From positions 9,382 to 73,381 of IMG/VR virus record IMGVR_UViG_3300050821_012250: a DNA stretch of 64,000 nucleotides; one strand, given 5' to 3'. A program made the position numbers and the translations under genes. The notes below the pieces were generated by a model. The model did not search any database. It saw nothing but the letters and a program-made list of their open reading frames with translations, and was not told where the DNA came from. Position 1 is the first letter of the stretch. Every line of letters begins with the position of its first letter. The stretch comes from a virus. Shown piece by piece: positions 1-28,958 of this stretch.

Positions 1-354
1 ATCGCGATGCTTTCCGGCATGCTGTTCGGCAAGCCCTGTACATTAGGTCCCGGATTCGGCATTACATCGTCCTCAGTTAATCGGTGCCGTCAAAAGAATT
101 CCGCTTGAGCGGCTTGATGAGACGCGGGGCCTCGCGGCCCGGTTCGATCTTTCCGGGCAGCGCTGAAGCCGCACGCGGCTTCAGTCCGGAACCTGAGGAT
201 TGGATACAGTCGCTCGCGAAAGCCTCGGGCATGCGCTCGTAATGCGTATGCTGAGATGCTGGACCACCAGCGGGAATATCCGGAGCGTGCTCGACCGGCG
301 CATGCGGAGTACCGACTTCGGTACTCGTGGTGATCCGGCTCGGCTCGTTGGGCA

Positions 355-729
355 TCAGACGCCAGCGCCTCGCGTGAAGATTACCGCGGTATTCGTACCA
401 GGCGCGGTACCCAGAATCACACTCACCGCCGCCACTTCACTGTTGACCGTGACGGTACGGCACACACCGGGTGCCACCGGAAAGCTCGCCGCGACCGTTG
501 CCGCGACTTCCTCGGTGGTATTGCGCGAGAAATTGACGTACGCCCATGCGGTGGTCGTATTGGCGATCTGGATCTGATTGAGATCGCTGTTGCCCGTGGT
601 GTTACCGGGAAGCGTGGCGGAGGCCGCAGCCGAGTTACTTCCTGTCACCGTGACGCTCGCGATCAGTGAGCCGGCGCCAGATCCCGAATTCGGCCCGTAG
701 AGCGGTGCAAAAGGACGTTGATCGTACAT
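355..729 (-). CDS. Ser/Thr/Ala-rich putative virion structural protein
   Basis: 124-aa ORF downstream of the coat gene, co-oriented and closely spaced with neighbours; beta-strand-like, small-residue-rich composition. Confidence 0.55.
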   Translation of the reverse strand: MYDQRPFAPLYGPNSGSGAGSLIASVTVTGSNSAAASATLPGNTTGNSDLNQIQIANTTTAWAYVNFSRNTTEEVAATVAASFPVAPGVCRTVTVNSEVAAVSVILGTAPGTNTAVIFTRGAGV

Positions 730-3030: not shown

Positions 3031-3053
3031 AAAAGGGCGCCGTGTGGCGCCCT
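3031..3053 (-). terminator. Rho-independent terminator after coat/HNH
   Basis: AGGGCGCC-ACAC-GGCGCCCT hairpin followed by Ts. Confidence 0.7.
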
Positions 3054-3097
3054 CAAGGTGGTTGGTTGATCGGCCCTGTCAGGCCCGGACGAGAACA

Positions 3098-3886
3098 TCA
3101 GTCGGTAACGTGCTTCCAGACTTTGCGTCTGCGGATGTTGGAAACGAGAACGTTGGAGATTCCATATTTCTGAGCCAAGATCTTCCCTTGCTCGATACTT
3201 TTACGGATTTCTCTCACAATTTCCTCCGTGATTTTGCTTCCGATTCCACGTCTATGCGCGCCACCGCGAGGATTTTTAGCGATGTGGCTCACTTCTACGT
3301 GAGCCCAAGAAACTCTATTCTTGATGCTCGTGATCGTAGTAGCAGCCACTCCATAATCAGCCGCGATTTCAGCATACGTTCGTGAATCTGAGAGAATTTT
3401 CCTAACTTTCTCTTCATTGAGTTGGGCCAGATGAGAATTCTCTCCCGACTGATCATGTCGGCGCCCTTTCCTATTCATATCTGCATGGTTGTCGGCTACA
3501 GTTCCAAGCCACAAATGCGCTGGATTGACACATGTGGGATTGTCACAGGTATGACAGACAAGTTTGTCAGGAGGCACTGGCTTGCCACTATGTAGAGCAA
3601 AAGAAAATCGATGGGCTTTCGTATACCTCACTCCGTGAATTATTCCGTCAAAACGCCCATACCCTTGACGGTCCACGCAGTAGGTCCATAACCAACAGCC
3701 CTCTGTCTTTTTATGCTGTGCTTCGAATCGTTCGATGGCACTCCTGCCTCTGAACATCGCAGCATTCATTTTAGGTTCAAACGGCGAGCCAGATTTCCTA
3801 GCTCGCCGCAAATGCTCACTGCATAAGCCAGAAGCCTTCACAGGGAGGTCGCACCCTTTGCATTGACACACGCTTACGGTTTCCAC
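3098..3886 (-). CDS. Free-standing HNH homing endonuclease
   Basis: GCWLW..GYG, KAHRFS, VCHTCDNPTCVNPAHL..GT..DN HNH motif; C-terminal repeated helical DNA-binding units; GTG start at 3886 preferred. Confidence 0.9.
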   Translation of the reverse strand: METVSVCQCKGCDLPVKASGLCSEHLRRARKSGSPFEPKMNAAMFRGRSAIERFEAQHKKTEGCWLWTYCVDRQGYGRFDGIIHGVRYTKAHRFSFALHSGKPVPPDKLVCHTCDNPTCVNPAHLWLGTVADNHADMNRKGRRHDQSGENSHLAQLNEEKVRKILSDSRTYAEIAADYGVAATTITSIKNRVSWAHVEVSHIAKNPRGGAHRRGIGSKITEEIVREIRKSIEQGKILAQKYGISNVLVSNIRRRKVWKHVTD

Positions 3887-3981
3887 ATTTCGTTCTCGGT
3901 TATTAAGACCGAGACATTTTGCCGAAAACCTTGGACGAATGCAATGCATTGAGCTATTCTAAATCCCCGTGAAAACAAGCC

Positions 3982-5600
3982 TCATCCAAACACCCGGATC
4001 GCTAAGGACCTGTATAAAGAAGCAGGGCCGTAGAGAACATCACAGCGTGTAGGCTCTGAGTCGTTATTGATAGTGAATTGCGTCACCATCCGAATCGACA
4101 TCCCCACATCCTCGTCGTCATAAGCCCGCGCCGCGAACTCCACGCCCCGGGGCAGTGGCAGATCCGCGAAGGCCAACGCAAACGCGTACTTGTGGAACAC
4201 CAACCCCTGCGGAGTCGCCGTGCTGGCGTACGCCGTTCCACCGTTGACCGTGATGGTCGTACCGGTGCCAGTCGGCGCCGCCGTGCAGTTCTGGAACTGG
4301 CCGGCGCTGATGATCGCGTCGCCAATCGTGAGCTGCAGATTGCCCGAGCTGTCACTGGTGTACACCCCAGTCAGCGGGTTGAACGTACCGTTCGTCAAAC
4401 TCGCCGGCCCGTAGTAGATGCCCGTCGTCGCGGCACCGTTAGGCGGCGTGATAAAGCCACCGGGCGGTAGTACCACGAATTGTTTCAGCGTGCGTCCATA
4501 CTGCTGACGGCTCTGCGGGTTTACCGGATAGATACCTGAGAACTGGATCACATCACCGACCTTGATCACACCGGTCGAAGCCGTCCAACCTGTCGTCAGG
4601 ATCGTGCCGTTCGCCGACCATCCGCTCGTGAGCAGCGCCGTACCGGTCGGTGTCGCCGAGACCGTGGGCGTACCGCCCTGAGCACCGGTCGTGAACGACA
4701 TGATGTTCTGATCCTCCCACCAGTCCAATCCGGCGAACTCCTTCGCCACCATGCCGCGCTCGTTGAACTCGCTGATGCGCGCCTGAGGATTGAACAGACC
4801 CTTGATGGCATCCGTTGCCGCTGACATGCTGATGGGATCCAGCACGCAGTTCTTCTCGCCTTCGGCCGGGCAGGCCTCGGACGCCAGCACCGCGCGCGCA
4901 TCGGAGAAAATCTTGTAGCTCGCAGGCTGGATGCCCGCGGTGCCCAAGGAATTCGCCGTGTTGAGCGTGCAGAACTGTGCAGTGTCGGAGTCAACCCGGT
5001 TCGCGACGGTTGCGACCTGAGGTTTCAGAATGCGCTGTTTGAACATATCCATGGACAGCGCCAGGTCCTGCGTCGTGAACTGCACATCGACGTGGAACTG
5101 GTAGTTGAGCACCACCGGGACGTACTGCTCGAACGTGTCTTCCACGTTCAGAGGGGGGCCGTATGTACCGATGTAGCGGGGCGGACGCCGGACGTTAACT
5201 GTGTTGCCTATCTTGGCGCCGGTCTGTGCGAACTCGTTTGAATCAAATGTTAGACCAACTCAAGTTGGTCCGATCTTTCGATCGCTCTGATTCTCATCAG
5301 AGATCAGATCATATCTTGCTTCTTTCGAAGCCCCACCGTTTCGAGCCCGTTGGCTCTACTTCCTTTCGGAATGATCGTTGAGCGTTCCGTCTTATGACGG
5401 CTTCGTTGCTGATTGTCTAATCCTGAAGATTGTTACCTTTCGGTACTTCAGGCTATAAAGAGTTTCCAGCAGTTAGATGGGTTTTGCGTCAGCATTCAAT
5501 TTTACTGACGGTCAACGCGGTTAGCGATGACGAGTTCATTTTCCAACACTACCAACGCCTCGTTAGTAATGTAAGAAATCGTCAAAAGTTGCTGGACAAT
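3982..5600 (-). CDS. P22-like major capsid protein, join(5504..5600,3982..5243), about 452 aa after splicing
   Basis: Exon 1 reads (M)VQQLLTISYITNEALVVLENELVIANRVDRQ; the spliced junction gives RVDRQ-Y-SNEFAQTGAKIGNTVNVRRP in frame with the 387-aa ORF; C-terminus FHKYAFALAFADL..R.DVLYG is typical of P22 gp5-like coats. Confidence 0.9.
5244..5503 (-). ncRNA. Group I self-splicing intron (260 nt, no ORF)
   Basis: P1 CGUCAGU/GCUGACG with a U.G wobble at the 5' splice site; P10 UUGAAU pairs with exon 2 AUUCAA; P element AACUGCUGGAAA, Q AAUCAGCA, R CUCAACGAUCA, S AAGAUAUGAUC; P3 CCCAUC/GGUGGG; terminal G at 5244; removal restores the reading frame. Confidence 0.95.
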
Positions 5601-5643
5601 AGTCGCTGCTCCTAAATGTTTGTTTCATCAGGAACACCAACAC

Positions 5644-7570: not shown

Positions 7571-10500
7571 TCATTTTTCGGCCTTCTCAGCCTTCTCGGC
7601 CGCATGTTCTGCGGCGACTTCAGCCGCCTCTTTCGCATGGCCGCCCTGCACGTGCGAATCAATGATCTTGCCCGTCGCGCCGATCTCAGCCACTGCGATG
7701 GAGGCTTGCGCTTTGGTGTGCGTGTCCATCGCGCTCGTATGCGCCTTCAATGCCGCATCATTCGCCTTGACCTGTGTCTGCTGATCGACCTTATACTTCT
7801 CCAAGGCGATCCAGTTATTCTCAATATTGGTCTTCAGCTTCAATTCTTGCTGCAGACCTTGGATTTCCTGTTGCGCCTGTTGCAACTGCTGCTGCATGGC
7901 CGTGACGATACCCTGCGCCTGTTTCGGCAGCGATTTGATGGCCTTGTCGAGACCCTGCGGGGTGAGTGGCGCGAGGCGATCGGCCAGGTCTGATGCACCG
8001 GGCCAGTCCATGTTGCGCACCACGAGATCGGCGCCGACTTTAACGACCGGCTCGCCCAATGGTGTCCGCATGAGATCCAACATGGAATCGACCGCCTCCA
8101 TGCGCTTGGTCTCAAAACCGGGGCCGGTATCCATCACGACATCGTAACGGCCCACTGTGAGGTCGTTCTTGATCTTCGCGACCGCAGGATCTATCGGAGG
8201 CTGTCCGAGCAGCGGCAATTCTGCGCCTGCGCCGCCTTCATTCGGATCTTGCGGCTGATTAATGCCGACCACTTCCGGCACGCCATCCTCGCCGATGATG
8301 CGCTGCATGCGTGCTTCGCTGTAGTAGTACGGAATCAGGTCGAGAATGATGCGGCCGGTATGGCAGATCGACTTGGTTTGATTGTCGTAGTACTGGAAGT
8401 GGCCGATGTCACTCAACGCTTGGCGAGCACGTAAGGCTTTACCGGAAACGACCTGACCAGGCGCGTCCTGACCGGGCTCGTGCGGCATGCCGGCGAGGAT
8501 CATCAGATCCTTAAGGGCGGACTCTGCAGCCTGCACAAAGCCCGCTGGAACGGCCACCGGCTCAACACGCTGCGGCGGTGGCAATGGCGTTTTACTGCCA
8601 TCAGGTTGCTCGATAAAATCGGGTGTATAAGTCAGCTTCGAATAGGGAACTTGATTGGCATCATTCCATTCCGGGTGACCATCGAAATGATTTGTGGTTC
8701 CCACCCATGGAGCACGCGGAGCAAGGGCGATTACCTCTGTTTCGCAGGTATTGTGAGTAGGAATCATCGCCTCGCCACATAGGAATAGATGCGATGGTGA
8801 ATCGATAGCTAAACATTGCACTGGCACCGATGCGATACGTTCGACTTTGTCGATGCGATGTCGATGCGTGCGCCGAATCTGTTCTGGCCGTTTACCAAGT
8901 CCTGCAAGCTTTCTGGCCATACGAAATATCGGTTTTCGTGTGGTGAAGGAAAATTGATATGACTCGGAACATTTCGATTGATAGCCACCAGGCATTTCGC
9001 AAAGTCGCGCTGCGCGCTTAATGACTATAGCTTTTATGCCAATGGAACGAAGTAATTCAGCGAGTCCTTGTACAATTTGTAGATTTATATTTGTGAAACT
9101 GCATTGACCTGCAGCCGACACTGATCCATCAGTATCCATTAAACCCTGAATCAAAGCTAATCGTTGCTCATGCGATGCTCTCAAATATTTCTGAGGAATG
9201 TGCTTGCGACCTAGCAAGCCTTCTTCGATCAGTATTTGACGAATTCCATAGACGGAGAAAGTCGGGGCTTTTGTCTCATCTTTTTGCTTATGGCATGGGC
9301 CAACAGAATATCCACAGTCTGATAAATGTTTTCGCATCTCTTCAACATCATCTTTTCCGTGGCAGATGCTTGTGGAAACTGCTGTTCCATTTCCCAACCA
9401 GACGCCTAATAGATATGGATCTAACGGCAAATCGATCTTTGGCAAATCAAGCGGTGCTGTGACATAAATGTAATCCTTTCGCGGTTGTAGATCCTTTGTT
9501 AGAACGGACTTCCTTAGCCATTCAAAACTATGAGCATTGCGGGGTCCACGCTGCTCTACTGGCCATTCATGTTCACCACTAGCTATTACTTGGCTACCGT
9601 CGTCGAATGTGATGCGATAGCAATCCTTGTGGACGTAGATCGGACTTTTACCGAGTACTTTGCACGGTTTGCCATGCTCATTGAACAACATGTCGCCGGA
9701 CTTGACTTCGCCCATCGTGGTCCAGCCGGTTGGCGTCGGCAATGGTGTATCCAATGACAGATGACGCCAGTAATTCACCATGCGAGCAACATCAATCAAA
9801 TCCCGCACCATCCCCTTGCGCCGGATCTGCCCATTCAGATCCATCACGTTGCCTTCGCAACGCACGACTGGAATCCACTTCCCCGGCAGATCAACTGATT
9901 CAACAACCGTCGACCCGTTCAATCGATGCCATTCCAATTGGCGCCGATACGCGGGGCGGCGAATCTCATCGCCACGAAGATTCTTCGCGATCTGCTGCCC
10001 TTCCTTCATCTGACTCAGATAAACGGACTCGCCAGAAGTGAGTTTGACTAGCGTGTCTTTCTTCTTGACGATGCGGAAATATTCCGCGAGCCGGATTTCC
10101 TCTTTCGTGCGCCATTCAAGGCTCATATCGCCTTGGCCACCATCACGCCATTCGGTTTCAGCTTCCTCGGGATACTTCCGCTCAAATTCCGACCGCTTCA
10201 TGGTCTCGGTGATCAAACACCACTCAGCATCCTCACCCGCCGGCAAAATAGAGCCGGGGTCCATGTAGACCGTGAACGGATTGCGGATCGGCGCAATCTT
10301 CAATTCCTGCTCAAAGCTATCCTCCGCGATGTACTCCGACAGAATGCGCCAGTAACCCCAGCCCATCTTGACGGCGGACTCACCACCGATGTCGTAAGCC
10401 GTCGCCCCTTCCGAGCGTTGCTCGATGTGCCGGATCAGTCCGCCGATTTTCTGCGCAAGATCGACATCCGCGCCATCACCGACCGGATGGACTTTGATGC

Positions 10501-10768
10501 GCGGACGCTGCATGCGCATGTTGTTCACGACGCGCTTGACCATCGCACGCGTGTGATTGATGGTCAGCGTCGGGCGTCGGGAGACCTTGCGCTGATTGTA
10601 GATGTCCGTGGGCCATTGCTGGCCGTCTTCGAACTCGAGATCGATGACCGCGGCCTGGCGGTTCGCGCCTTCGGACTGTTCTGCGATGCGCAGGCGTTCG
10701 GAGGCTTCCTGGAAAATTTCGTCGTTGCTGGTTGCAGGCTGGTGAGAGCCTGACGGAATTACGGGCAA
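7571..10768 (-). CDS. P22-like portal protein containing an intein
   Basis: GQQW..RPTLTINH, GWGYWRI, PGKWIPVV, VSGKAL and DLTVGRYDV..GP motifs of P22-type portals; 1065 aa including a 338-aa insertion. Confidence 0.92.
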   Translation of the reverse strand: MPVIPSGSHQPATSNDEIFQEASERLRIAEQSEGANRQAAVIDLEFEDGQQWPTDIYNQRKVSRRPTLTINHTRAMVKRVVNNMRMQRPRIKVHPVGDGADVDLAQKIGGLIRHIEQRSEGATAYDIGGESAVKMGWGYWRILSEYIAEDSFEQELKIAPIRNPFTVYMDPGSILPAGEDAEWCLITETMKRSEFERKYPEEAETEWRDGGQGDMSLEWRTKEEIRLAEYFRIVKKKDTLVKLTSGESVYLSQMKEGQQIAKNLRGDEIRRPAYRRQLEWHRLNGSTVVESVDLPGKWIPVVRCEGNVMDLNGQIRRKGMVRDLIDVARMVNYWRHLSLDTPLPTPTGWTTMGEVKSGDMLFNEHGKPCKVLGKSPIYVHKDCYRITFDDGSQVIASGEHEWPVEQRGPRNAHSFEWLRKSVLTKDLQPRKDYIYVTAPLDLPKIDLPLDPYLLGVWLGNGTAVSTSICHGKDDVEEMRKHLSDCGYSVGPCHKQKDETKAPTFSVYGIRQILIEEGLLGRKHIPQKYLRASHEQRLALIQGLMDTDGSVSAAGQCSFTNINLQIVQGLAELLRSIGIKAIVIKRAARLCEMPGGYQSKCSESYQFSFTTRKPIFRMARKLAGLGKRPEQIRRTHRHRIDKVERIASVPVQCLAIDSPSHLFLCGEAMIPTHNTCETEVIALAPRAPWVGTTNHFDGHPEWNDANQVPYSKLTYTPDFIEQPDGSKTPLPPPQRVEPVAVPAGFVQAAESALKDLMILAGMPHEPGQDAPGQVVSGKALRARQALSDIGHFQYYDNQTKSICHTGRIILDLIPYYYSEARMQRIIGEDGVPEVVGINQPQDPNEGGAGAELPLLGQPPIDPAVAKIKNDLTVGRYDVVMDTGPGFETKRMEAVDSMLDLMRTPLGEPVVKVGADLVVRNMDWPGASDLADRLAPLTPQGLDKAIKSLPKQAQGIVTAMQQQLQQAQQEIQGLQQELKLKTNIENNWIALEKYKVDQQTQVKANDAALKAHTSAMDTHTKAQASIAVAEIGATGKIIDSHVQGGHAKEAAEVAAEHAAEKAEKAEK
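8750..9763 (-). mobile_element. Class 3 intein with LAGLIDADG endonuclease (338 aa)
   Basis: Starts HLSLDTPLPTPTGW and ends IPTHN/T; block B H-x-W, block F VQC, block G THN (WCT triad); LAGLIDADG-like motifs YLLGVWLGNG and LIQGLMDTDG; lower GC than the flanks. Confidence 0.9.
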
Positions 10769-11048: not shown

Positions 11049-12952
11049 TAAAAGTTGGTGAAAATGCTCGTGCGCGTGATCGTATCAAGCACTTTGATCG
11101 TGCGCGCCAGATCGGTTGTCATGACGAAATTCGGCGTCACGGTGTACATGGAACTCGCCGGCACCGGCGTTGCGGAATTGGAGCCCGAGACGGTGCCCAA
11201 TACGGTTGGCGTCGCTTCCTCGGTCTGAATCGAGTAATTGTAGGCACCTGAGCCGCCGCTCGCCACCGGCAACCACCAGCGGATGCGCGTGATCATGGCA
11301 TTCAGCGGCAACCGGATCGCAAAACTGCCGCCATTGGACGGCCAGTCGCTGTTGGCGCTGACGAAGGATACGACCTTGGTATCCGTCGAGCCGCCGACGC
11401 CGATATTCCAATTCACATCCGAGTCGACAACCTCATGCCAACCCACCGCGCTTGCATTGTTGCTGTTGCGACAGTTTTTGAATCGCGCGATGGGATAACC
11501 GCCCTTGTTGCCGGAATTCGTAACCGTGATGAAGTTGGCGGCGGAGTTATTCTGCAGCAGTGTGCAGGATTCATAGCGTACCGAAGACTGATAATTGTAG
11601 TTGTTGCTGTTGTTGTCGTAGTTATGAACGCCAGATAGCTGACTATCGCGGAACGTAATGATTGGTCCCGGTTGATTCACGAAATTGAAATTGCACAGCA
11701 CATCGCTCGGCGAGCGACTGCCGACCTGCGAGGACTGATCCAGATTCATGAACGTGATGTTGCCGTTGTTCCAATTGGAATTCATCAGCAACGCGAAGTC
11801 CGTCGCATGTTCAACGCGCAGTCCGTTCACGCGAAACTGTTGGACACCCTGCGCGTTCGGCGTGCCCAGCAGATTGAACAGATAAGTCGTCGAGGTTGGT
11901 CCGAAGGCTGAGACATCGCAATCGTCAATATTGAACTGGCCGCCATAATAGGAATAGATCCAGGGCGCCTTGGTCGACCAGAACTTGCATTTGGTGAACC
12001 AGAAGTTCAGGAATTGATCGGTACCATTGGCGCCCACGGCCGTACCGTTCGCATTCGGGACCAGCGGCGATCCCATGAAGCTTGTCGCGATCTGAATATA
12101 ACTGCCCGTCGCGGCGACAATGAAATACGTCGTATTGGCCACAATATTGCCGACCGTCGTCCCGAAAGTCAGCGTCTGACCGACCGCGAAACCGCCATTG
12201 ACGTTCGTAAAAGCGAGCTGTGAATTCGATGCCGTGACCGTGAAAGTCTGCGACTGCGGCAAATACATCCAATTGGCCAGTCCATTCGGACAGGTGACGA
12301 AACACCGATCGAAACGCCATTCACTGTTATTGTTTCCGCCCGAGAGCAGGCAGATATTCTGCCAGGTTCCTCCCCATCCGCAATCGGAGAAGTTGAAATA
12401 CTGGATGTTGGACAGTCCGCCCTGCTCAGAGGACTGATAGAAGTCACTCGTCGCGGAATTGCCGTAGAAGAAAATGCCTTCCCACTGCACATTCTGGATC
12501 AGGCGGTTGTAGCAGAGCGGTCCCGGCGTCGCGGGCGAGTAATTGATGATCGTCAGGCTCTGCCCCGCACCGACGAACTTCAAACCATCCAGTTTCAACG
12601 TGGGGCCATTGGTGAGCCCCGGCATCATCGCGTAGGCCTGATTGATATAGTACACACCAGGACCGAAGGCGACCACCGCATAGGTGCCATACGCCGAGCC
12701 GCCGGGCTGCAACGTCGGATTCGAGACGGCCCTTGAATAGGCGATGCTCAGATTGAGCGTATCCAGAAAGCCGGTCTGATCGCCGGTGGGCGATAGAATC
12801 GAGCCCTGCAGCCCCACGAAAGCCTGCGCGCTGCCAATCGCAGTGTTGAGCGCGTTGAAGTTGAAGTTGCATTTCGAGAATGCAGCTTGAATCGGATCGC
12901 CCGTGGTGTCATTCGCGAAAGTCCCGATGTTGATGACTTCGAGGGCGGTCAT
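11024..12952 (-). CDS. Tailspike/fibre-like protein with a probable right-handed beta-helix
   Basis: N-terminal INIGT.AND.TGDP...AF.K.N attachment motif; V.FGPGVY and G.G...TII pectate-lyase-like start; Asn/Gly-rich. Confidence 0.7.
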   Translation of the reverse strand: MTALEVINIGTFANDTTGDPIQAAFSKCNFNFNALNTAIGSAQAFVGLQGSILSPTGDQTGFLDTLNLSIAYSRAVSNPTLQPGGSAYGTYAVVAFGPGVYYINQAYAMMPGLTNGPTLKLDGLKFVGAGQSLTIINYSPATPGPLCYNRLIQNVQWEGIFFYGNSATSDFYQSSEQGGLSNIQYFNFSDCGWGGTWQNICLLSGGNNNSEWRFDRCFVTCPNGLANWMYLPQSQTFTVTASNSQLAFTNVNGGFAVGQTLTFGTTVGNIVANTTYFIVAATGSYIQIATSFMGSPLVPNANGTAVGANGTDQFLNFWFTKCKFWSTKAPWIYSYYGGQFNIDDCDVSAFGPTSTTYLFNLLGTPNAQGVQQFRVNGLRVEHATDFALLMNSNWNNGNITFMNLDQSSQVGSRSPSDVLCNFNFVNQPGPIITFRDSQLSGVHNYDNNSNNYNYQSSVRYESCTLLQNNSAANFITVTNSGNKGGYPIARFKNCRNSNNASAVGWHEVVDSDVNWNIGVGGSTDTKVVSFVSANSDWPSNGGSFAIRLPLNAMITRIRWWLPVASGGSGAYNYSIQTEEATPTVLGTVSGSNSATPVPASSMYTVTPNFVMTTDLARTIKVLDTITRTSIFTNFYCLIDYIG

Positions 12953-13142
12953 TTTGGCTCACAGCCTGCGCGGTAAGTCCATTCGATGGATTCGCGAACA
13001 TGTTTGCAGCTTCGGCACTCAACCGTGCCGTCGTGATGCAGGAAGAACAACTGACTGCTGCACGGGCATTCAAAGACCCATTCCGGGCGCTTGATCTGGA
13101 AGTCGTGCTCGACTACATCGCCCAAGAAGGTCTCCTGAAATG

Positions 13143-13166
13143 AAAACGCCCCAGTCAAGGGGCGTT
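13143..13166 (-). terminator. Rho-independent terminator
   Basis: AACGCCCC-TTGACT-GGGGCGTT hairpin with a short T run. Confidence 0.7.
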
Positions 13167-13170
13167 ACGT

Positions 13171-13371
13171 TGAATGAACGGGATATCTCGGGCCAGCGCG
13201 GTCGCCTGCCTCCCGTGGGGCGCGCGTGATTCAAAAATAATCGCCCGATACTCGCCTCGGTGCTGGGAAATAGCTCATTTGACAAGGGTGACGGACTGGC
13301 AGGCGTTGCCTATCCTTGGTACCTCAGATCCAGTCCGCTCCGGATTTACCTCAATCAAACCAATTCATTCA
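13171..13371 (-). ncRNA. Candidate structured ncRNA (family unknown)
   Basis: Closing helix UGAAUGAA/UUCAUUCA; internal helices GCGGACUGG/CCAGUCCGU, UCGGGC/GCCCGA, AGGC/GCCU, GAUU/AAUC and GCGCG/CGCGC; directly followed by a terminator. Confidence 0.5.
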
Positions 13372-13544
13372 TTTGGACGCCCGATCGGCTTCGCATTTGG
13401 GAAATGCTCCTTGAGTAGCTTCCTTCCCTGCGGATCATCCAGCTTTTCAGGATAGTCCTGCTTCAGCCCCGAGCACATCTCGCAATCCTCAGCGCCCACT
13501 TCAGGATCATCGATCTGGAAATTACACCAGATATGATGCTTCAT
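13365..13544 (-). CDS. Small Cys/His protein (59 aa, not in the ORF track)
   Basis: MKHHIWCNFQ...DCEMCSGLK...; ATGA overlap with the upstream gene's stop. Confidence 0.5.
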   Translation of the reverse strand: MKHHIWCNFQIDDPEVGAEDCEMCSGLKQDYPEKLDDPQGRKLLKEHFPNAKPIGRPNE

Positions 13545-13756
13545 CGCTGAGATCCGGGCCAGCGGTCGAAAGCAGCCCGATATTGGTGCGCTTGTTCCGT
13601 TGGCTTATTTACGAGTGAAGTGGGGTTTGCAAAAGCCATCTTCTCCCTCAATATCTTCAAATCCTCCAACAGCTGAGCGTATTTCGCTTCCAGATCGACA
13701 ATGCGTTTCTGGTGAGATTGAAGCTTTTGCTCGAGCTGCTGGAGGGGGTTCAAGGG

Positions 13757-14320
13757 CTATTCCGGCGATGGACCATTGATGCCGCCTGCGAGGCCCGCAG
13801 ACGCATCAACAGCAGACGGCACTTCAAGGCCAGCTACTCCGTTGGCCTGATGCAAAGCCTGATTCAGATCGCCGTTTGGGGGCCATGCATTCTGAAATGC
13901 CGATCCTGCCAACAGTTCCGCGCTAGTTGCCTGAAACTGATACCCCGTGGTATTCGGGACATTTTCGGGCTGCGCGGCGCTCAGCGTGACTTCCGGCACA
14001 ACCACCGGTTGAGGCAATTTCTCGCCCGTGATGCCGATCCATTGCCGGAAGGCCGCGACCGTTTCGGGGCCGACAAACAACAGCAGATTTCCATCGTCAG
14101 TGACGATAAAGTCGTTCGCCTCAACCGTTTCGCCATCGGTGTAGCCATCATGCATGACGGTTTTCACCGTGTACCGATAGAGTGATTGAACAGGCTCGGG
14201 CGCAGATTCAACGACGGGAGCCGCATTCTTCCGCGGCCTTCCCGGCTTGCGCTTCGCAGGCTCGGAAAATTCAAAGGATTCGGCGACCTTGCGCGGTCGG
14301 CCAGGTTTACGTTTCGCCAT
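13757..14320 (-). CDS. AT-hook-containing hypothetical protein
   Basis: Two KRKPGRPRK AT-hook motifs at the N-terminus. Confidence 0.6.
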   Translation of the reverse strand: MAKRKPGRPRKVAESFEFSEPAKRKPGRPRKNAAPVVESAPEPVQSLYRYTVKTVMHDGYTDGETVEANDFIVTDDGNLLLFVGPETVAAFRQWIGITGEKLPQPVVVPEVTLSAAQPENVPNTTGYQFQATSAELLAGSAFQNAWPPNGDLNQALHQANGVAGLEVPSAVDASAGLAGGINGPSPE

Positions 14321-15277: not shown

Positions 15278-15745
15278 TCAGGACGCAGAGACAGTTTTGC
15301 ACTCTATCCGACGTGTACTCTGAATCTTCTTTCGGCGCAAGGGCTTCGGTCGCGTTCCAAAGGCCGAAAGTCCCGGATACCGCCGTAGCAGTTCTGCGCG
15401 AGCTCGTGTCACACGCATGCGTAAGGCACTGACAGATAAGCCTAAAATGCTCGCTTTCTCATCTGGCGACCAATAGCCGCCGCTGTCTTTCATTTGTACG
15501 GCATACCACACAAAAAGGGCGGACTGATGCGTCAGCGGAAGCGTTAATTGACAGCAGTGGATGAAATAGACCGATTTCGACATGTCGGCGCAGAGAATTC
15601 GCGAACCTGGCGGCTGATCGGAGAAAATCATGCTGAAGGCTGCTTGCTGCGGTAATACAGCGTCCTCGCAATGACGTTCCTGCCACGCGCCCCAGTCGCG
15701 CAGAAGGCTGTCCAGGTGGTCGTATTCCGCTGAGGTATGGGCCAT
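15278..15745 (-). CDS. Antiterminator Q-like/late regulator
   Basis: L..LL.DWGAW N-terminus and C-terminal HTH (KASILGLSVSALRMRVTRAR); upstream of late genes. Confidence 0.6.
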   Translation of the reverse strand: MAHTSAEYDHLDSLLRDWGAWQERHCEDAVLPQQAAFSMIFSDQPPGSRILCADMSKSVYFIHCCQLTLPLTHQSALFVWYAVQMKDSGGYWSPDEKASILGLSVSALRMRVTRARAELLRRYPGLSAFGTRPKPLRRKKIQSTRRIECKTVSAS

Positions 15746-17110: not shown

Positions 17111-17917
17111 TCATTTCGCGCGTATCACCATGCCGATCAGATCATTTGATAGCATTTCATGCCGTTCAACCCTTCTATCGGTCCAAGTCTCTTCGCTGTT
17201 TTCAGCTGTGAGCCACAGTGGGGACTCTTCCAATACCGCAACAATATCTTCCTCACGCATCACCAACAATTCCTCGCCGTCTATCTGAATCTGAGTACCG
17301 AGACTGAACCAGATGCGATCTCCGGCTTTCACATCGAGCGGAACGACTGCGCCGCTTTCGAGAAGCTTGCCGGGACCGATTGCAATGATCTCGCCACGCA
17401 AATAAGGCTCGCGCTCCGTATCTACAATCTGGATGCCACCGCGCGAAACGGTCTCGCGTTCCAAGCGCCTCACAATCACGCGATCGTGTAGGGGGCGACT
17501 CTCGCCAGTTTCGGCATCGAATACAATCGCCACATCGGCTTCACGTGTCGAAATGATTACGTCTTTGCCGCCCCAGAGCACACGAGTGAACAAATATCCG
17601 TTTAATTCGAGGCCGCCAAGATCGACGACATCACCGGGCTGAATATCACACGGGGTGAAGTGTTTTGAGTCCCACGACTTCGTGCGCTTGCCTTTCGGCC
17701 CGTCATATCGCTTCTGGAAATGACCGGGCCCGACAGCCAATACTTTCCCGCGAACTGGCTGACCCCGATAAACCAGCTCCATCATCGTCCCATGATCGAT
17801 ATCCAGCGGCTCAACGACGATATGATCGCGCAGACAGCGGATGGTTTCGTCTTCGCGGACAAAGGTTAACAGGGCGTTGGACACGCGGACGCCGCGATCG
17901 ATGAGGGGTTGGTTCAC
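17111..17917 (-). CDS. groES: Tandem (two-domain) GroES/Cpn10 co-chaperonin
   Basis: Domain 1: CLRDHIVVEP...GKVLAVGPG...IQPGDVV...READV. Domain 2: RPLHDRVIVRR..E.VSRGGI...GEIIAIGPG....G...PLDVKAGDRI.F...DGEELLVMREEDIVAV. Confidence 0.85.
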   Translation of the reverse strand: MNQPLIDRGVRVSNALLTFVREDETIRCLRDHIVVEPLDIDHGTMMELVYRGQPVRGKVLAVGPGHFQKRYDGPKGKRTKSWDSKHFTPCDIQPGDVVDLGGLELNGYLFTRVLWGGKDVIISTREADVAIVFDAETGESRPLHDRVIVRRLERETVSRGGIQIVDTEREPYLRGEIIAIGPGKLLESGAVVPLDVKAGDRIWFSLGTQIQIDGEELLVMREEDIVAVLEESPLWLTAENSEETWTDRRVERHEMLSNDLIGMVIRAK

Positions 17918-19905: not shown

Positions 19906-21063
19906 TCATGTCGCCGACCTCACCGATTCTGCTCCTATCTCGCGACGGCGCTTGCGTAGCCTGCTCGATGGAATCGATAAGTCCGAAGACTCGTTCCCGC
20001 ATACGGAGGCTCGACACCTGAGCCCGGTTCTGAGAATGTTCCTCGCGGCATTCACGTCGCGATCGTGCTCGGTACCACACTCCGAGCATTCCCAGTGCCT
20101 TACAACGAGTTGTCCTATTCCCGCCGGGCCGGAAAGGCCTCCGCAGTTTCCACAGACTCGCGTTGTGAATCTCTCGCTGACGATTTCCACAAACCTGCCG
20201 GCGTGCTCGCCTTTATACTGCAGTTGTGTTTTGAGCATCCCCCAACCGGAATCCAAAACGGATTTCGCCATCTTGGTTTTGGCTAGCTTGGAACTACTCA
20301 CATCGCCAATAATAATTTTCTGATAACTATCAATAATCGCTCTTGAGAACTTATGCAGGGCATCGGCACGACAGCGCGCTGCTTTGCGGTGAAACCGCTT
20401 CGCCTGGCGCCGATGACCGCGACGCTGAGCGTTGGCAAGTCGCTCAGCATAGCGATGAGTCCACTTGCCGGCTTCCAATCGCTCGCCGTCACTAGTAACG
20501 GCGATATCTTTTAGGCCCAGGTCAATGCCGACAGACTCATTTGGCGCGATTGTTATCTCGGCCGTTTCGATGATCGGCAGGCATAGCCACCAATCCCCCA
20601 TGGCGTCCTGCGCAAAGCAGCCTTGCTGCCACTTTGCCCCTTCGAGTCGATCGGACTCGAACACTCGAAAAGTCTTGCCGGCGAAACGCAGCGCATTTCC
20701 TTTGCGCTTGAGACTCTTTGTCTTAAACGGTATCCAACCTAACGACCGTCTCGATCCACGGCTTACGCGCCAATGCAGTTGAGTGCGCTTTGCCTGTTTG
20801 CGCTTCTGCGCATATTCACCGTTGATGCGCTGAATAGTGTCTGCGCCAATACGCACAAAGTGTTCTGTGGCGCCAGCACTCAGGTTGTTGAGATCAAATC
20901 CACTCAACCATTCCCGGGGTCCTACAAAAGGCTGCGCTGCCTTGGCGCTCACCTCATTTGCCCAATTCCAAACTTGGTTGACTTCAATCGCAGCAGCATT
21001 GAGCCACGCATAGGACTCAGAACGGACCTTCAACTTCAGGGTACGCGTAAACGAGAGCGGCAT
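19906..21063 (-). CDS. tnpB: TnpB-family RNA-guided nuclease (IS200/IS605-derived, no TnpA)
   Basis: GIDLG (RuvC-I); IIIGDV with a downstream VSERFTT; CxxC..CxxC zinc finger; HDRDVNAARNI (RuvC-III). Confidence 0.92.
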   Translation of the reverse strand: MPLSFTRTLKLKVRSESYAWLNAAAIEVNQVWNWANEVSAKAAQPFVGPREWLSGFDLNNLSAGATEHFVRIGADTIQRINGEYAQKRKQAKRTQLHWRVSRGSRRSLGWIPFKTKSLKRKGNALRFAGKTFRVFESDRLEGAKWQQGCFAQDAMGDWWLCLPIIETAEITIAPNESVGIDLGLKDIAVTSDGERLEAGKWTHRYAERLANAQRRGHRRQAKRFHRKAARCRADALHKFSRAIIDSYQKIIIGDVSSSKLAKTKMAKSVLDSGWGMLKTQLQYKGEHAGRFVEIVSERFTTRVCGNCGGLSGPAGIGQLVVRHWECSECGTEHDRDVNAARNILRTGLRCRASVCGNESSDLSIPSSRLRKRRREIGAESVRSAT

Positions 21064-22498
21064 GAGCGTATTATCTACTCTCATGGGCGCTCGCGCTCCA
21101 CTTTTTTGCGCAACTCGCTGATGGCTCGATACGTCATGTTTCTCGATAACCTCTCATCCCATCATCATCTGCCCGCATCTGCGCGAGCCAGTCACTGCGT
21201 TCTTCGCTGAGAAACCACATTAATCCGTAGACTGCGAAGACCCAAGGCATTTCGCTTCCTCCTCGGTCAAATAGCGCATGCCAGGCCAAGTAAATGGCGT
21301 GCCGTCAGCGACAGCCAATGCTACGAGAAACTCATAAACATCTGGCAATTCGGCGCCGAGCTTCATCCAATGCTCAGTCAGAAGACTTTTCGCGGTCACT
21401 TCTTTAGTTAGAATCATGGTTCATTAATCCTACTGCACAATCCTAGTCTGATTAGACCAGGTCCGAATATAAAGCTCCAATACGCGTCATATGCAGTCTT
21501 TCCATCTCCAACCCAAGTCCAATCATTAGGAATCTGACAAAGCCAGTAATTCGAGATGATCCGACGAATGTGAGGTTTACCCTTGGGTCTCTGCACGTTT
21601 CAATTCCTCTTTCTCATGCTCCAGCCGATACACCTCCGCCACAGCCCATTCCCACTCTGCCCGATCGACGTGCGCGCCGATCAGGCCTTGGCGGATGGAT
21701 TCGCGCAGGGCGGCGGAGGTCTTGGTCACTTCGACTTCCGCGTGGATGCGATCGACAGCAGCCGCTGAGCGGTGACCGCGGTATCTTTCGCGCGGCCGAT
21801 GCGGACGGCTTCCAGTACCTCTTTGGCCTCTATCGCATTTTTGGCGTAGACCGGCAACGGACTGCGCATTCCGGGTCTGCTTCTGCGCATCGCGCTTTTG
21901 ATCCTCGCATTTTTGCGCATCTCGAAGGGCGTTGAATTCACATGGCCGCATTCACGGCACTTCGATACGAAGTGCATCGTATCTTTCTGGCAGTCGGGAC
22001 AGAATTGCGTGGTGAAGTGTCGGACGCTCATTTCGGCGGTCCATTCCCAGCATTCTTATGCCAGCTGCGCGACATTGGATTACTCGGAACGTGGCGTTCA
22101 TCATGCACGGCGTTGCATTGGCAGGTGGCGCAGTGCTGATCAGTCAGACGTTTGGGAGAGGCGTTTATCGCCCCAACAGTTCGCGCAACCGCAATACCAT
22201 GCATGTCAATCTCGCCGTCTTTTCCGAACGCATGATCGTAACCCGCAGCGCGCATCTGATCGGCGATCTCGCGATAGGCCGCTTCGCTGAGCTCCATGAT
22301 GACATACGTATGAGTCATAAATTCACACACTCCCGGCACCAAAACACCCCACCCCGAATCCTACCACCGCCGGTCGGCTTCAGCAGCCCGCATTTGCGGC
22401 AGGTGCGGCGGATGAGGGTGATGGGGCAGTAGGTCATGCGCCCGCTCGGATCATCGCCTTGAAGAACAGGCCGAGGCCTGAGAGGAGGGTTGCAACGG

Positions 22499-23954: not shown

Positions 23955-24170
23955 TCAGTTCCGACAGCGCATGTCTTCTTGAAAAGTATGATTTTCATCG
24001 GTGATCTCGTTTTGTTTCATTCGAACATCATGATCGTACACGAGCGCTTCGATGTATTGGCTCTTGCCTCTATAATCGAATTTGGCAACATTCTCCCTGA
24101 TCAGGCGCGCAACCTCCGAACTTACGAAGACGGAGACCTTTACCTTCTTGGGCTTCGGCTTTTTCGTCAC
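23955..24170 (-). CDS. Ribbon-helix-helix-like DNA-binding protein
   Basis: GTG start overlapping the TerL stop; KVSVFVS..V...I......KSQYIEALV. Confidence 0.5.
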   Translation of the reverse strand: MTKKPKPKKVKVSVFVSSEVARLIRENVAKFDYRGKSQYIEALVYDHDVRMKQNEITDENHTFQEDMRCRN

Positions 24171-25648
24171 GCCATCCACCCCTGTTCTTGCCCCTGATGA
24201 AACACCGACTGCTCCCGCTTCTCCACGCGCTTCTTCGGCTCGCACTCGGCGCGGGTTTTGGCGATGCGGCGCATCATCATGGCGTAGCGGGTGGCGGCAA
24301 GTAAATCGTCGTGTTCTTTCACGATAATACCGTCTTTGCGGTGATAAAGCTCGAATTCTTCCTGCCATTCACGCAATTCGCGGAAAACCAGCAGTCGGCC
24401 GGTCTGGAACCGCTCCAGCATTTCACTGATGCCCGCTTCGACGCCGTTGTCGCCGTTCTCAAAGGTCGAGTGCGTCATATGCATCTTGAGTCCGTGAGCT
24501 CGGTACATCTGGGCGAGCTGCGGCTGATCCTTCAAATCGAACTTGCCACCCGACTGCTTGCCGTCGTGCGGCCACGCCCATGGAATCCACTCACCCCAGT
24601 GTTTGACGGCGCTTGCAAACATCATTGGAGTTTGTTCTCGCTCGCGATGAATGGCGGTTACGTACAATTCATCGGTGTCGCGATTGAAAGCAAGACGCAC
24701 ACCGGCACTTGGATGGTCCCAGCCGAAATCAATGCCGCAGACTTGCGCCCAATGCTCAGGAATAGGAAAGCTATCGCATAGGATATCATCCAGCTTGATC
24801 GGAAATACCGCCCCCGATCCGCGCGACGGAATTCCTTTCGTACGCGCTTCCATTTCATGCGGTTTGTATGTCGCAATGATCGCTGCCCGATCTTCTGGAG
24901 AGAAGTGAGCAGCATCATCGATCGTCATGTTGATGACAAAACTACCGGGTACCTTGTCGATGATGAATCGACGCACAACCTCGGTAACTCCCATGAGCGG
25001 AGTGAATGTCATGAGGACGGGACCCATACCAACGTTGGTGCGCGTCAATATCTCAGTATAAATTCCGGGATCATCCATTTCTTCATCGCACCAGGCTCCT
25101 TGCAAAGTTTCGCCTTGGAATTTGGCCCTTCCTTGATTGTAGGCTTTGAATTGGCAGGTTGACTCAGTCCCACTGACGTGTTTGATTTTCACCATATCAA
25201 CACCATCAGCCACGGATCGATTGCGTGATGGCTCGCCAATGATGCAGTCTTTGGGGATCATGCCGGTTCCCCACTGGCCGACACGTCCCAATAGAATACG
25301 CTGCGGGTTATCGCGTGTTGACTCTGCGGTGATTCCCGCAACCCACCATGGACCACCTTTTTCGAAGCGCTTGCCTTCCCACCACTCGGGATAGCGGCCC
25401 GTTAAGTGCATCGCGACTTCGGCGCCTGCAGATAATGTTTTCCCGACCTGGTTCGCCGAGGCCATCAAACGTTCACGATATTTCGCACCAGCGGCATGGA
25501 ACTCAGCTTGCTTAGGATAGGGCTGATAGTTCGCGAGTTTATTTGCTGATTCGCGCCGATCCAATTCCCTCGGAATCTCTCTCAGAGCCGTCTCCAACAC
25601 CTCCGGCGCAATCTGGTCGAAGATTTCGTCGAGCGCGTCGAAGTTCAA
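24167..25648 (-). CDS. terL: Terminase large subunit
   Basis: PYPKQ.EFH, ASANQVGKT (Walker A), AWCDEE (Walker B), MTFTPL.G, GIDFGWDHP and DDLL.ATRYA nuclease motifs. Confidence 0.95.
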   Translation of the reverse strand: MNFDALDEIFDQIAPEVLETALREIPRELDRRESANKLANYQPYPKQAEFHAAGAKYRERLMASANQVGKTLSAGAEVAMHLTGRYPEWWEGKRFEKGGPWWVAGITAESTRDNPQRILLGRVGQWGTGMIPKDCIIGEPSRNRSVADGVDMVKIKHVSGTESTCQFKAYNQGRAKFQGETLQGAWCDEEMDDPGIYTEILTRTNVGMGPVLMTFTPLMGVTEVVRRFIIDKVPGSFVINMTIDDAAHFSPEDRAAIIATYKPHEMEARTKGIPSRGSGAVFPIKLDDILCDSFPIPEHWAQVCGIDFGWDHPSAGVRLAFNRDTDELYVTAIHREREQTPMMFASAVKHWGEWIPWAWPHDGKQSGGKFDLKDQPQLAQMYRAHGLKMHMTHSTFENGDNGVEAGISEMLERFQTGRLLVFRELREWQEEFELYHRKDGIIVKEHDDLLAATRYAMMMRRIAKTRAECEPKKRVEKREQSVFHQGQEQGWMA

Positions 25649-26699: not shown

Positions 26700-28958
26700 T
26701 CACAGCTCAACCTCTCTGATCTTGATGTATTTCCAGCCATCACTGCGCCGCTTGCGCTCCCATTTAAGTGCCTGCAGGGCACTCGCAACACGCATCTGAT
26801 CACCGCGACTCCAGCGTCCTTCTTCGATGCGCAGCGCCTCAGTCAAAATCCTCGAAACGGTCAATTCTTCGAGCGGTTGTTTTCTCAAATACCATTCGTT
26901 TTTTTGCAGTGGATCGCTTGACCGCTCGTGCGTAATGAATTTCTCAATCAGTTCCTCCCAGGCATCCCGATCGCGGCGAGATTCCTGCTGAGCACGCGCC
27001 TCAACGCGTGGTACATCCCACCAGATTTCGCCGCGCTTGAATCGCTCTACCGCTTCCGCAAAGAGCATTGATTTCGATTTTTCCAGCCATTCCAGATCAA
27101 TCGTCGTGCAGCGGATCGGCCAGAAACGCCGTGCTCCAGTATCGCTGGCATTCCAATTATCGCGATTGGTGGTGCCCGCAAAAACGCATGTACGTGGATG
27201 ATCCTCCGCTCGGCGCCCATAGGATTCCCGATAACGATCGACCTGGCATGAAATAACACCTTTCAGACGATCGACATCCGCTTTACGGAAGGCATGAAGT
27301 TCAGATATTTCGACCAGGGCCTTTCCCTGGATGGATTGATAAAAATCCTTTGTTGTGATGGATTCGTGGCATTCCGCAAACCAGGGTGATCCGATGAGCG
27401 CGAGTGCTGATGATTTGCCCAATTCTTCCTTGCCTTCGAACACGGGCAATGCATCAACTTTTGCTCCGGGTTTGAAAATTCGCGCAACGAGGCCGACAAG
27501 CCAGCAGCGCCCTACCGCGCCGGTGTATTCGTCATACTCGGCACCGAATCCATCTGACATTAGATGGGCCAGCCGTTCCGTCCCATCCCATTCCAGAGAA
27601 TCAAGCCATTCGCGCGGCTCATTGCGGATATTTGATTCCGCGACCGCTTGGACGGCATGGCGGACTGGCTCAATAGTAAGTTTCGGAATATCGAGTTTCT
27701 GCTGAATCCAGATGAGCGCGCGAATATCGTCGCCATCGGTCCATTCACGTCTGGAATCGGCAGTTGCGCGAAAAAAGGTGCGCCGGTGAAACTCATCAAA
27801 CCATATTTTACCGGCAAATTCTGGATGCCCTTTCAGGATGGCCGTGACATTTACAACATTGGTATACGGGGTTTGATTACCGGTCTTCTGCAATCCAAGT
27901 TTGTCCCACCACGCATAAGCGGAGCCATCATCCTCTATCATTCCGGTTTCGGACACGGTAGCGCCCGCTGCCCTCAAGGGCTGCGCTCGTGTAGAGGCTT
28001 TTACCGCCGGTTGCCGGGCTCCCTCTTGAATTACTCCATCCTCGTCGACGACAAATGGAGTATTATCTTGAACAGGAGGAGAAACTTTTCTGCGGGATTC
28101 TCCATACTTACGGACAGCTGTTTCTGCATATCCCCCTACACGCTCGCTGAAGTTGACTCCGTCCGCGTTGAGGGAATTCGGTCCAAGCAATTCTCCAAGA
28201 AGGGCGGCGATATCCCCAGCCGTCATTCCTTTGGCTGCGAGTCGTGAGCTTAAAGAAAGGCAACTCTGATGCCGATCGTGCCCCTCCTGGATATTTCGCC
28301 GGAGCTGCTCATCCGTGGTCTCATCCCGCGCATGCGTGCCGTTAGCCTTGAATCCAGCGTAATACTGTGGCTCGAGGTCAACGGCCTGATCGACGCACCG
28401 ACCCTCGATCTGATACACCTGATAGTTAGCGCCGCGGACCCGGCCGATATAGAAGGATTGACTGAGCGTGAAGGATTCCCGACTTGCGATGCCCCCCAAG
28501 GCCCGATTGGCGCGCGCCAGATACTCACCCCGCTTCTCCGGTGGGGCGGCCTCCGAAAACGGCAGAATGGCGCGCCAGCGAGGCTTGGCGGGAATATGAG
28601 ACGGTGATGTGTAGATCACGGCGCGCAAGCGAGCCGCCTCCAGCATAGCTGCCCCGCGTTCAGGCGAAATCAGCTCACCGTCATAATCCAGCTCCGCTCC
28701 GTAAGCGCGCACCACGTTGGCGGCGTGCCGCAGGATGGGTTGCTTGGCGCTGTTACTGAGCAGTTCCCCATATTCGCAGAGACTGACCAGCGGACAATGC
28801 GCCTTGTCTGGGTAAGCTTCGCTGGCGCGGATCCTCGTTACCAATTCCTGCCATTCTACATCGGACCGATCAATCTTCGTCTTGGGCCATACGTCGGGGA
28901 AAAGTGTATAACTGATCAACAACTGACCAGTATCAGCGCTGTTCTGTGAAATCTCCAT
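26700..28958 (-). CDS. Primase-helicase with VapE-type P-loop domain
   Basis: N-terminal LDYD, YTSPSH..KPRWR primase-polymerase-like motifs; C-terminal WDG.ERL, EG..ELGKS, YR.SYGR, GTTN and TGARRFWPI. Confidence 0.88.
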   Translation of the reverse strand: MEISQNSADTGQLLISYTLFPDVWPKTKIDRSDVEWQELVTRIRASEAYPDKAHCPLVSLCEYGELLSNSAKQPILRHAANVVRAYGAELDYDGELISPERGAAMLEAARLRAVIYTSPSHIPAKPRWRAILPFSEAAPPEKRGEYLARANRALGGIASRESFTLSQSFYIGRVRGANYQVYQIEGRCVDQAVDLEPQYYAGFKANGTHARDETTDEQLRRNIQEGHDRHQSCLSLSSRLAAKGMTAGDIAALLGELLGPNSLNADGVNFSERVGGYAETAVRKYGESRRKVSPPVQDNTPFVVDEDGVIQEGARQPAVKASTRAQPLRAAGATVSETGMIEDDGSAYAWWDKLGLQKTGNQTPYTNVVNVTAILKGHPEFAGKIWFDEFHRRTFFRATADSRREWTDGDDIRALIWIQQKLDIPKLTIEPVRHAVQAVAESNIRNEPREWLDSLEWDGTERLAHLMSDGFGAEYDEYTGAVGRCWLVGLVARIFKPGAKVDALPVFEGKEELGKSSALALIGSPWFAECHESITTKDFYQSIQGKALVEISELHAFRKADVDRLKGVISCQVDRYRESYGRRAEDHPRTCVFAGTTNRDNWNASDTGARRFWPIRCTTIDLEWLEKSKSMLFAEAVERFKRGEIWWDVPRVEARAQQESRRDRDAWEELIEKFITHERSSDPLQKNEWYLRKQPLEELTVSRILTEALRIEEGRWSRGDQMRVASALQALKWERKRRSDGWKYIKIREVEL

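Follow-up and report, generated by a model that had tools for sequence, protein, structure and literature searches.

The window, by which we mean the whole stretch of 64,000 nucleotides analysed here, corresponds to bases 9382-73381 of a virus record that is rated complete and is 73,381 bases long; its genes lie on the minus strand as far as about 37 kb. Judged from its portal and coat genes, the source would be a P22-like soil phage, belonging to a poorly known group, and no match to the window was found in the GenBank phage collection. With the portal as the starting point, 115 relatives were confirmed: among the best 80 of these 115, found at 79 loci, the neighbourhood described below is shared only by L007 and by G001, the latter sampled as loci L006 and L088. 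G001 is an 89-kb record in which about 230 nt are repeated at both ends with a one-base difference (L088 1-230, L006 1-65), and is probably a circularly permuted assembly classed as linear. The relevant genes and features of the window, in the order of minus-strand transcription, are:

26700-28958, minus strand: VapE-like primase/helicase
24167-25648, minus strand: large terminase, upstream of the gap
19906-21084, minus strand: TnpB/Cas12f-like protein, with OrfB_IS605 and TNB domains
17111-17917, minus strand: GroES-like protein, followed by a run of small genes and then by the gap
15278-15745, minus strand: 155-aa candidate transcription factor, sigma-region-4-like, 1.9 kb upstream of the gap
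13365-13544, minus strand: 59-aa gene of the HHxWCN...CxxC...HFP family, whose stop codon (13367-13365) opens the gap
13126-13364, minus strand: untranslated intercistronic gap of 239 nt, featuring stops in all frames or ORFs devoid of homologues
13137-13166, minus strand: intrinsic terminator, with an 8-bp stem (6 G-C), a 6-nt loop and the tail TTTTCATTT; pair probability 0.97-1.0
13123-13136, minus strand: RBS AGGAGA (13136-13131) and TTG start (13125-13123) of the zinc-ribbon gene, directly after the T-tract
12949-13125, minus strand: 58-aa zinc-ribbon-like gene (CxC...CxxC), 86-88% identical to L006 and L007
11024-12952, minus strand: 642-aa tail-fibre-like gene, following the zinc-ribbon gene
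7571-10768, minus strand: P22-type portal, with a LAGLIDADG intein
3982-5145, minus strand: P22-type coat gene
3033-3054, minus strand: second module, made of a GC-rich hairpin, TTTTCATTT, AGGAG and an ATG start
2425-2407, minus strand: third module of the same build

A scaffold-like gene is also found among the structural genes downstream of the gap. An initial annotation had proposed that the gap contains a novel structured RNA of about 200 nt and had located it in the late region; this location is a fair one, given the large terminase upstream and the tail fibre, portal and coat downstream.

Coding status of the gap and its terminator

The ORF immediately upstream of the gap is a real gene, as its family indicates: 53 homologue representatives were found at E<=1e-3, 43 of which are 52-83 aa long, and the 12 aligned members stop 6-14 residues past the HFP motif, as the window's protein does. 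In a near-identical strain, represented by a single contig of run X2 (n=1, depth 2.7), the stop of the gene is preserved, TAA taking the place of TGA. At 8 of 8 other phage loci examined, out of 11 found, a coding sequence follows the 59-aa gene directly, with no gap; the orphan 5' segment of the gap, described below, does not therefore travel with this gene.

The gap itself is non-coding, as originally claimed, since the upstream gene family ends where the gap begins and the overlapping ORFs lack homologues. A small protein might, in principle, be encoded by an ORF of 71 aa (13070-13285, minus strand), by one of 93 aa (13174-13455, plus strand), or by read-through of the TGA at 13367-13365, which is followed by 30 in-frame sense codons. 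A search of 5.8 billion clustered proteins, within set length windows, revealed no homologue of either ORF, however, and the protein-level conservation that had been named as counting against an RNA is thus absent from both. The 71-aa ORF, furthermore, includes the terminator and shares part of its length, in another frame, with the conserved zinc-ribbon gene, while read-through is at odds both with the end of the 59-aa family, coincident with that of the window's protein, and with the TAA of the variant strain: a coding function is hardly credible.

Directly after the proposed RNA, as had been noted, lies a terminator, a GC-rich stem-loop (13166-13145) followed at once by a T-rich tract (TTCATTT). 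It is the sole terminator-like site (13166-13137) on the minus strand between 10.5 and 17.5 kb and, in a pattern scan of positions 1-40000, the only minus-strand sites with at least 7 stem pairs are this one and the second and third modules listed above. Over the window, the totals of terminator-like sites are not above those of shuffled sequences (15 against a mean of 20.3, and 16 against 19.4).

A hairpin is present at the same place in both relatives sharing the neighbourhood, with an 8-bp stem and a TTCG loop in G001 and a 5-bp stem in L007; the two stems are unrelated to the window's and to each other, and are followed by TTTTCATTT, GGGAGA and TTG. In this comparison with two relatives, position and structure are kept and the stem sequence is changed, which constitutes the best evidence for a functional terminator. 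The TTG start and the GGAGA of the zinc-ribbon gene are likewise kept in L006/G001 and L007; more distant copies of the gene, in L113 and L114, have neither gap nor terminator in front. In a contig of run X2 (depth 4.8), the terminator and RBS are joined directly to a tail-fibre-like GTG start, without the zinc-ribbon gene (window 13131), and this junction places a module boundary at the RBS.

Predicted folding of the gap

The helices drawn by the initial annotation on the minus strand are all present. The closing helix, located at the upstream stop codon, pairs 13371-13364 with 13178-13171 (8 Watson-Crick pairs), and the main helix of the first proposed domain, Domain A, pairs 13338-13330 with 13299-13291 (8 Watson-Crick pairs and one G-U). 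UUUGA (13359), UCAAA (13282) and the palindrome GGUACC (13323-13318) are found at their expected sites, and so are the motifs of Domain B, namely UCGGGC (13248) and GCCCGA (13193), GAUU/AAUC and GCGCG/CGCGC. The whole fold is near-optimal, its energy being -75.8 kcal/mol when enforced, against a minimum free energy (MFE) of -79.5 kcal/mol. Pair probabilities decrease from 0.97 for the closing helix to 0.6-0.7 for Domain A, 0.25 for UCGGGC/GCCCGA and 0.03 for GCGCG/CGCGC.

Comparison with shuffled sequences, a check that the initial annotation had itself suggested, revealed nothing above chance. The MFE of the 241-nt stretch has a z-score of -1.06, with 24 of 200 shuffles equally stable, and that of its plus strand a z-score of -1.61; for the core (13371-13171) the value is -0.02 (144/300 shuffles), for Domain A -1.05 (41/300), for Domain B -0.37 (104/300) and for the gap deprived of its terminator +1.33. 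A Watson-Crick helix of at least 8 bp is found in 73 of 300 dinucleotide shuffles, and one of at least 9 bp, with G-U allowed, in 239 of 300; two perfect 8-bp helices within 201 nt are somewhat more than one, the shuffle count covering single helices. The helices match, in short, what random sequence of the same composition gives. Hexamer palindromes are also of the sort supplied by chance, five being observed in 201 nt against about 3 expected, and GGTACC occurs 13 times in the window, which leaves the proposed multimerization through the GGUACC loop without a distinctive basis.

MFE z-scores proved a poor discriminator here. The non-coding elements found in four relatives (see below), which do show compensatory changes, have equally non-significant values, between -0.3 and -1.3, and a non-significant z-score does not therefore exclude a real fold in the window.

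The statement that the gap corresponds to no known RNA family proved correct. A search of positions 12500-14000 with Rfam 15 (4227 models), at E up to 10, returned three chance-level rows, none of which inside 13126-13364, and a scan of the whole window at gathering scores returned only a tRNA-Gln.

The hypothesis of an autonomous, novel two-domain non-coding RNA of about 200 nt, possibly multimeric through its GGUACC loop, can be weighed on these grounds. Its helices exist, the fold is no more than 3.7 kcal/mol above the MFE, the lack of an Rfam match would make it new, the terminator could produce its 3' end, and an element with compensatory changes is present at the same locus in relatives. 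Thermodynamic excess is lacking, however, such helix lengths are common in shuffles, Domain B has a low pair probability, neither the Domain A nor the Domain B segment is conserved anywhere, no promoter-like site was found, and only 33 of the 224 positions in the profile of the relatives' element find a match in the window. We consider such an RNA very unlikely. The phi29 pRNA, a packaging RNA forming multimers through loop-loop pairing, resembles it only in the idea of loop-mediated multimers: the window's phage is of another type (P22-like in portal and coat), a location at a genome end is lacking, the palindromic loop is not conserved, and the stretch has no Rfam match. More generally, a fold drawn by hand in a GC-rich spacer of 200 nt is no proof of an RNA gene, and this one did not stand up to the controls.

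A conserved block and a related non-coding element

Comparison with other phages divides the gap upstream of the terminator into three parts, here listed with the core hairpin of the central one and with the element found in relatives:

13268-13364, minus strand: orphan 5' segment (97 nt) containing Domain A (hairpin 13338-13291, UUUGA/UCAAA); MFE z-score -0.71
13235-13267, minus strand: conserved block (33 nt), matched by nhmmer to model positions 184-216 of 224 (E 1.1e-5)
13263-13243, minus strand: core hairpin (21 nt) with a bulged A, predicted identically in 5 of 5 sequences
13167-13234, minus strand: window-specific insert (68 nt) containing the Domain B 3' arms (Domain B pair probabilities 0.03-0.25) and most of the closing-helix 3' arm (13171-13178)
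L007 6293-6512, L088 (= G001) 208-424 (minus strand), L095 95-300 (= L098) and L097 827-1066 (= L109): relatives' non-coding element, rare and complete in these four contigs, about 206-270 nt

Both L007 and G001 feature a non-coding stretch of about 270 nt before the zinc-ribbon gene, ending in the hairpin described above; upstream of this terminator the two share 77% identity over about 260 nt, and the window is not alike. The elements of L095 and L097, of which L098 and L109 are metagenome copies, were found by a pattern derived from the shared block, and are located after a GroES-like gene and directly before a 60-aa gene. The four sequences align over their full length, each matching profile positions 1 or 2 to 222. 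They are characterized by two 5' hairpins with changed but paired stems, by a hairpin loop in which GUCGA is conserved and by a 3' block of high conservation; two members also have tetraloops of the GNRA type. Stops are present in all six frames, and conservation is equal in every frame. An antisense ORF across the element was considered and rejected, because L109 and L007 use different frames.

Compensatory changes affect 9 of the 36 predicted pairs, and the covariation score is reached by none of 500 column shuffles, figures to be read with caution, as the four sequences form two pairs and themselves supplied the alignment from which the structure was deduced. No Rfam row was obtained for L007 and L088 at E<=1. 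The element is a candidate for a new RNA family, a possibility that four sequences are too few to settle. On viral contigs, all 4 matches to the block pattern are genuine; in metagenomes 2 of 13 are, both of them copies of known elements, and the other 11 look like chance occurrences in coding sequence. A shorter pattern resulted in 65 matches on viral contigs, 61 of which new, and a genome pattern in 2, and none of these 63 new loci matches the profile at E<0.01.

The part of the element retained in the window is its final 33 nt, with the 21-nt core hairpin; three phages also have the terminator and the zinc-ribbon gene downstream in common. The conservation of this block is clear, its identity being 31/32 to G001 and 35/41 to L097. 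The stem of the core hairpin is invariant in 5 copies, with two loop positions differing in L007, so that covariation is uninformative about this hairpin. Identity to G001 is 86% for the zinc-ribbon protein and 85% for the portal: the block is better kept than the surrounding coding sequence, which argues for selection on it. Its core hairpin has hardly changed among five soil phages, the proteins of which are by now 50-85% identical.

Of the 224 positions in the profile, about 190 are missing from the window, including both compensatory 5' hairpins, the GUCGA loop and the 5' arm of the last helix. This helix, CGGUA/UAUCG (alignment columns 223-227 with 247-251), is formed in 4 of 4 elements, against 0 of 5 pairs possible in the window. 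In place of the missing parts the window carries 97 and 68 nt of unrelated sequence, so that about 165 nt of the gap are lineage-specific, and neither segment has a homologue in any collection searched. For the 5' segment no match was found in the fetched loci, and its similarity to the four elements is at chance level (60-287 of 300 shuffles), except for an 18-nt stretch shared with L007 (6/300, uncorrected for four comparisons), which has a different pairing role there. The insert, absent from L007 and G001, shows no similarity above shuffles; in those two phages the terminator lies within about 10 nt of the block, and in the window, which has the insert between them, about 70 nt downstream of it. 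Domain B crosses these boundaries, its 5' arms falling in the conserved block and its 3' arms in the insert; with homologues lacking for both lineage-specific segments, the multi-domain RNA gains no support from covariation. In G001 the block cannot pair with the terminator's 5' arm, and the sequence between block and terminator is absent from the relatives, which does not fit a leader of the riboswitch or attenuator type.

Other queries did not extend the neighbourhood. The tail-fibre relatives L001-L005 share the tail-fibre gene only; the 59-aa and 187-aa proteins, used as single queries, retrieved nothing on viral contigs, and the zinc-ribbon alignment retrieved no relative on genome contigs.

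We regard the gap as lying where modules of a mosaic genome, one with many mobile elements, are joined. It could, at the simplest, be a recombination scar, filled by what module exchange left behind and accompanied by a plain leaky terminator that just trims expression, the block being a functionless, decaying remnant and no dedicated antitermination being involved. The relatives' element is indeed cut inside its last hairpin, whose 5' arm CGGUA has been replaced, relatives do not agree in their flanking genes, the terminator is followed by another gene in a variant strain, and the genome contains many mobile items (the portal intein, an HNH gene, TnpB and a probable group I intron). A remnant in decay is, however, difficult to reconcile with a block that is better kept than the zinc-ribbon and portal sequences, and we hold this explanation to be unlikely.

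Transcription of the structural genes and mobile elements

The T-tract ends at 13137 and the RBS begins at 13136, so that no promoter fits between them and transcription of the tail-fibre, portal and coat genes has to pass through the terminator. No sigma-70-like promoter was detected on the minus strand between 10.5 and 17.5 kb by a scan with an E. coli-type consensus. The reading we prefer, with a probability of about one half, is that the gap is an untranslated intercistronic leader made of orphan sequence, which contains one conserved hairpin block and carries a terminator ahead of the structural genes.

In such a leader, the terminator would be a point of punctuation or attenuation, where transcripts coming from upstream would stop unless RNA polymerase had been made terminator-resistant. 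The best candidate for a factor conferring resistance would be the 155-aa protein, whose modelled structure resembles Q21, and the conserved block may be the site at which the modification of the polymerase is set. The layout in three modules would suit either leaky terminators grading expression or processive antitermination.

By sequence, the 155-aa protein shows a weak similarity to Sigma70_r4_2 and no match to a Q family. Its structural model (mean pLDDT 68) has Q21 in the top 7 PDB rows, ranking above the rows of sigma-4 domains, with 88-103 residues aligned over the whole length and Z between 7.3 and 8.7; in a helical protein a Z under about 13 can reflect a common arrangement, and the best value of 8.7 is not decisive. 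The protein is conserved in L007, G001, L012, L015 and L018, and distantly in L109. At least five ORFs separate its gene from the gap.

In lambdoid phages, the late operon starts at the late promoter PR', from which a short leader transcript extends to the terminator tR', read through by Q. The window resembles this arrangement in having an untranslated stretch of about 200 nt and a strong intrinsic terminator directly before the structural genes, further terminators down the operon, and a protein with a Q21-like predicted fold encoded upstream. It differs in that no promoter or pause element was identified by the E. coli-type consensus scan, in that the Q-like gene lies 1.9 kb away, with at least 5 ORFs between, and in that the large terminase is upstream of the terminator instead of downstream. 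The block, a short conserved hairpin in a leader upstream of terminators, may also be likened to the cis-acting antitermination RNAs HK022 put and lambda nut boxB; the stem of its core hairpin is invariant in 5 copies and carries no covariation signal.

A more specific proposal, which we advance tentatively and judge rather unlikely, is that an undescribed antitermination system is loaded at the core hairpin (13263-13243), which would act as RNA, in the manner of nut or put, or as DNA, in the manner of a Q-binding element, and would allow the polymerase to pass three strong terminators in the structural operon. The full element of the relatives would then be a new family of leader RNAs, of which the window contains a minimal version.

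The block might instead function as DNA, for instance as an operator, a Q-binding element or a late promoter, in which case the gap would be the leader of a transcript starting inside it. This is suggested by conservation at the DNA level, equal in all six frames; by the occurrence of the block once per genome, before a first gene that varies (in three phages the zinc-ribbon gene, in two the 60-aa gene); and by the presence, in the window, L007, G001 and L109, of a nearby gene for a Q21-like or sigma-4-like protein. The scan with the E. coli-type consensus, however, found no sigma-70-like hexamer pair, and the 9 compensatory pairs out of 36, not equalled in 500 shuffles, fit an RNA better, with the reservation that the structure comes from the same four-sequence alignment; a DNA site thus appears quite improbable.

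Should read-through of the terminator, in the leader we favour, prove to be regulated, it would constitute a late switch outside the lambdoid phages of enterobacteria. The layout is testable, consisting of three hairpin/T-tract/RBS modules, a conserved block before the first of them and a protein of predicted Q21-like structure encoded upstream.

Several mobile elements are found in the same arm. The 1065-aa portal (P22_portal, E 6.5e-137) contains, at about residues 524-587, an insert with the homing-endonuclease domains LAGLIDADG and Hom_end, which is an intein. PHROG matches labelled terminase and primase, to portal residues 327-676, probably reflect inteins in the terminase and primase families. 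Most of the 79 related loci match about 2.1 kb of the 3.2-kb portal query at the DNA level, and many relatives may therefore lack the intein. At the TnpB/Cas12f-like locus no guide-RNA family was recognized by Rfam, and a free-standing HNH endonuclease ORF (3098-3949, minus strand) is located just after the coat gene.

The coat gene appears to be split by a self-splicing group I intron, as far as can be judged from its sequence. A match to RF00028 covers 5285-5574 (minus strand) over the full model, with 48.8 bits against a gathering score of 50 (E 2.9e-11), and was accordingly missed by the gathering-score scan of the whole window. It lies in an ORF-free stretch of 498 nt before the P22-type coat ORF, whose frame is open from 5259 (3982-5259) and whose Pfam match starts at profile position 41. 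The first coat exon may be an open frame of 40 aa (5505-5624) located before the intron, for which no Pfam match was found. This intron seems to be the clearest structured RNA of the phage.
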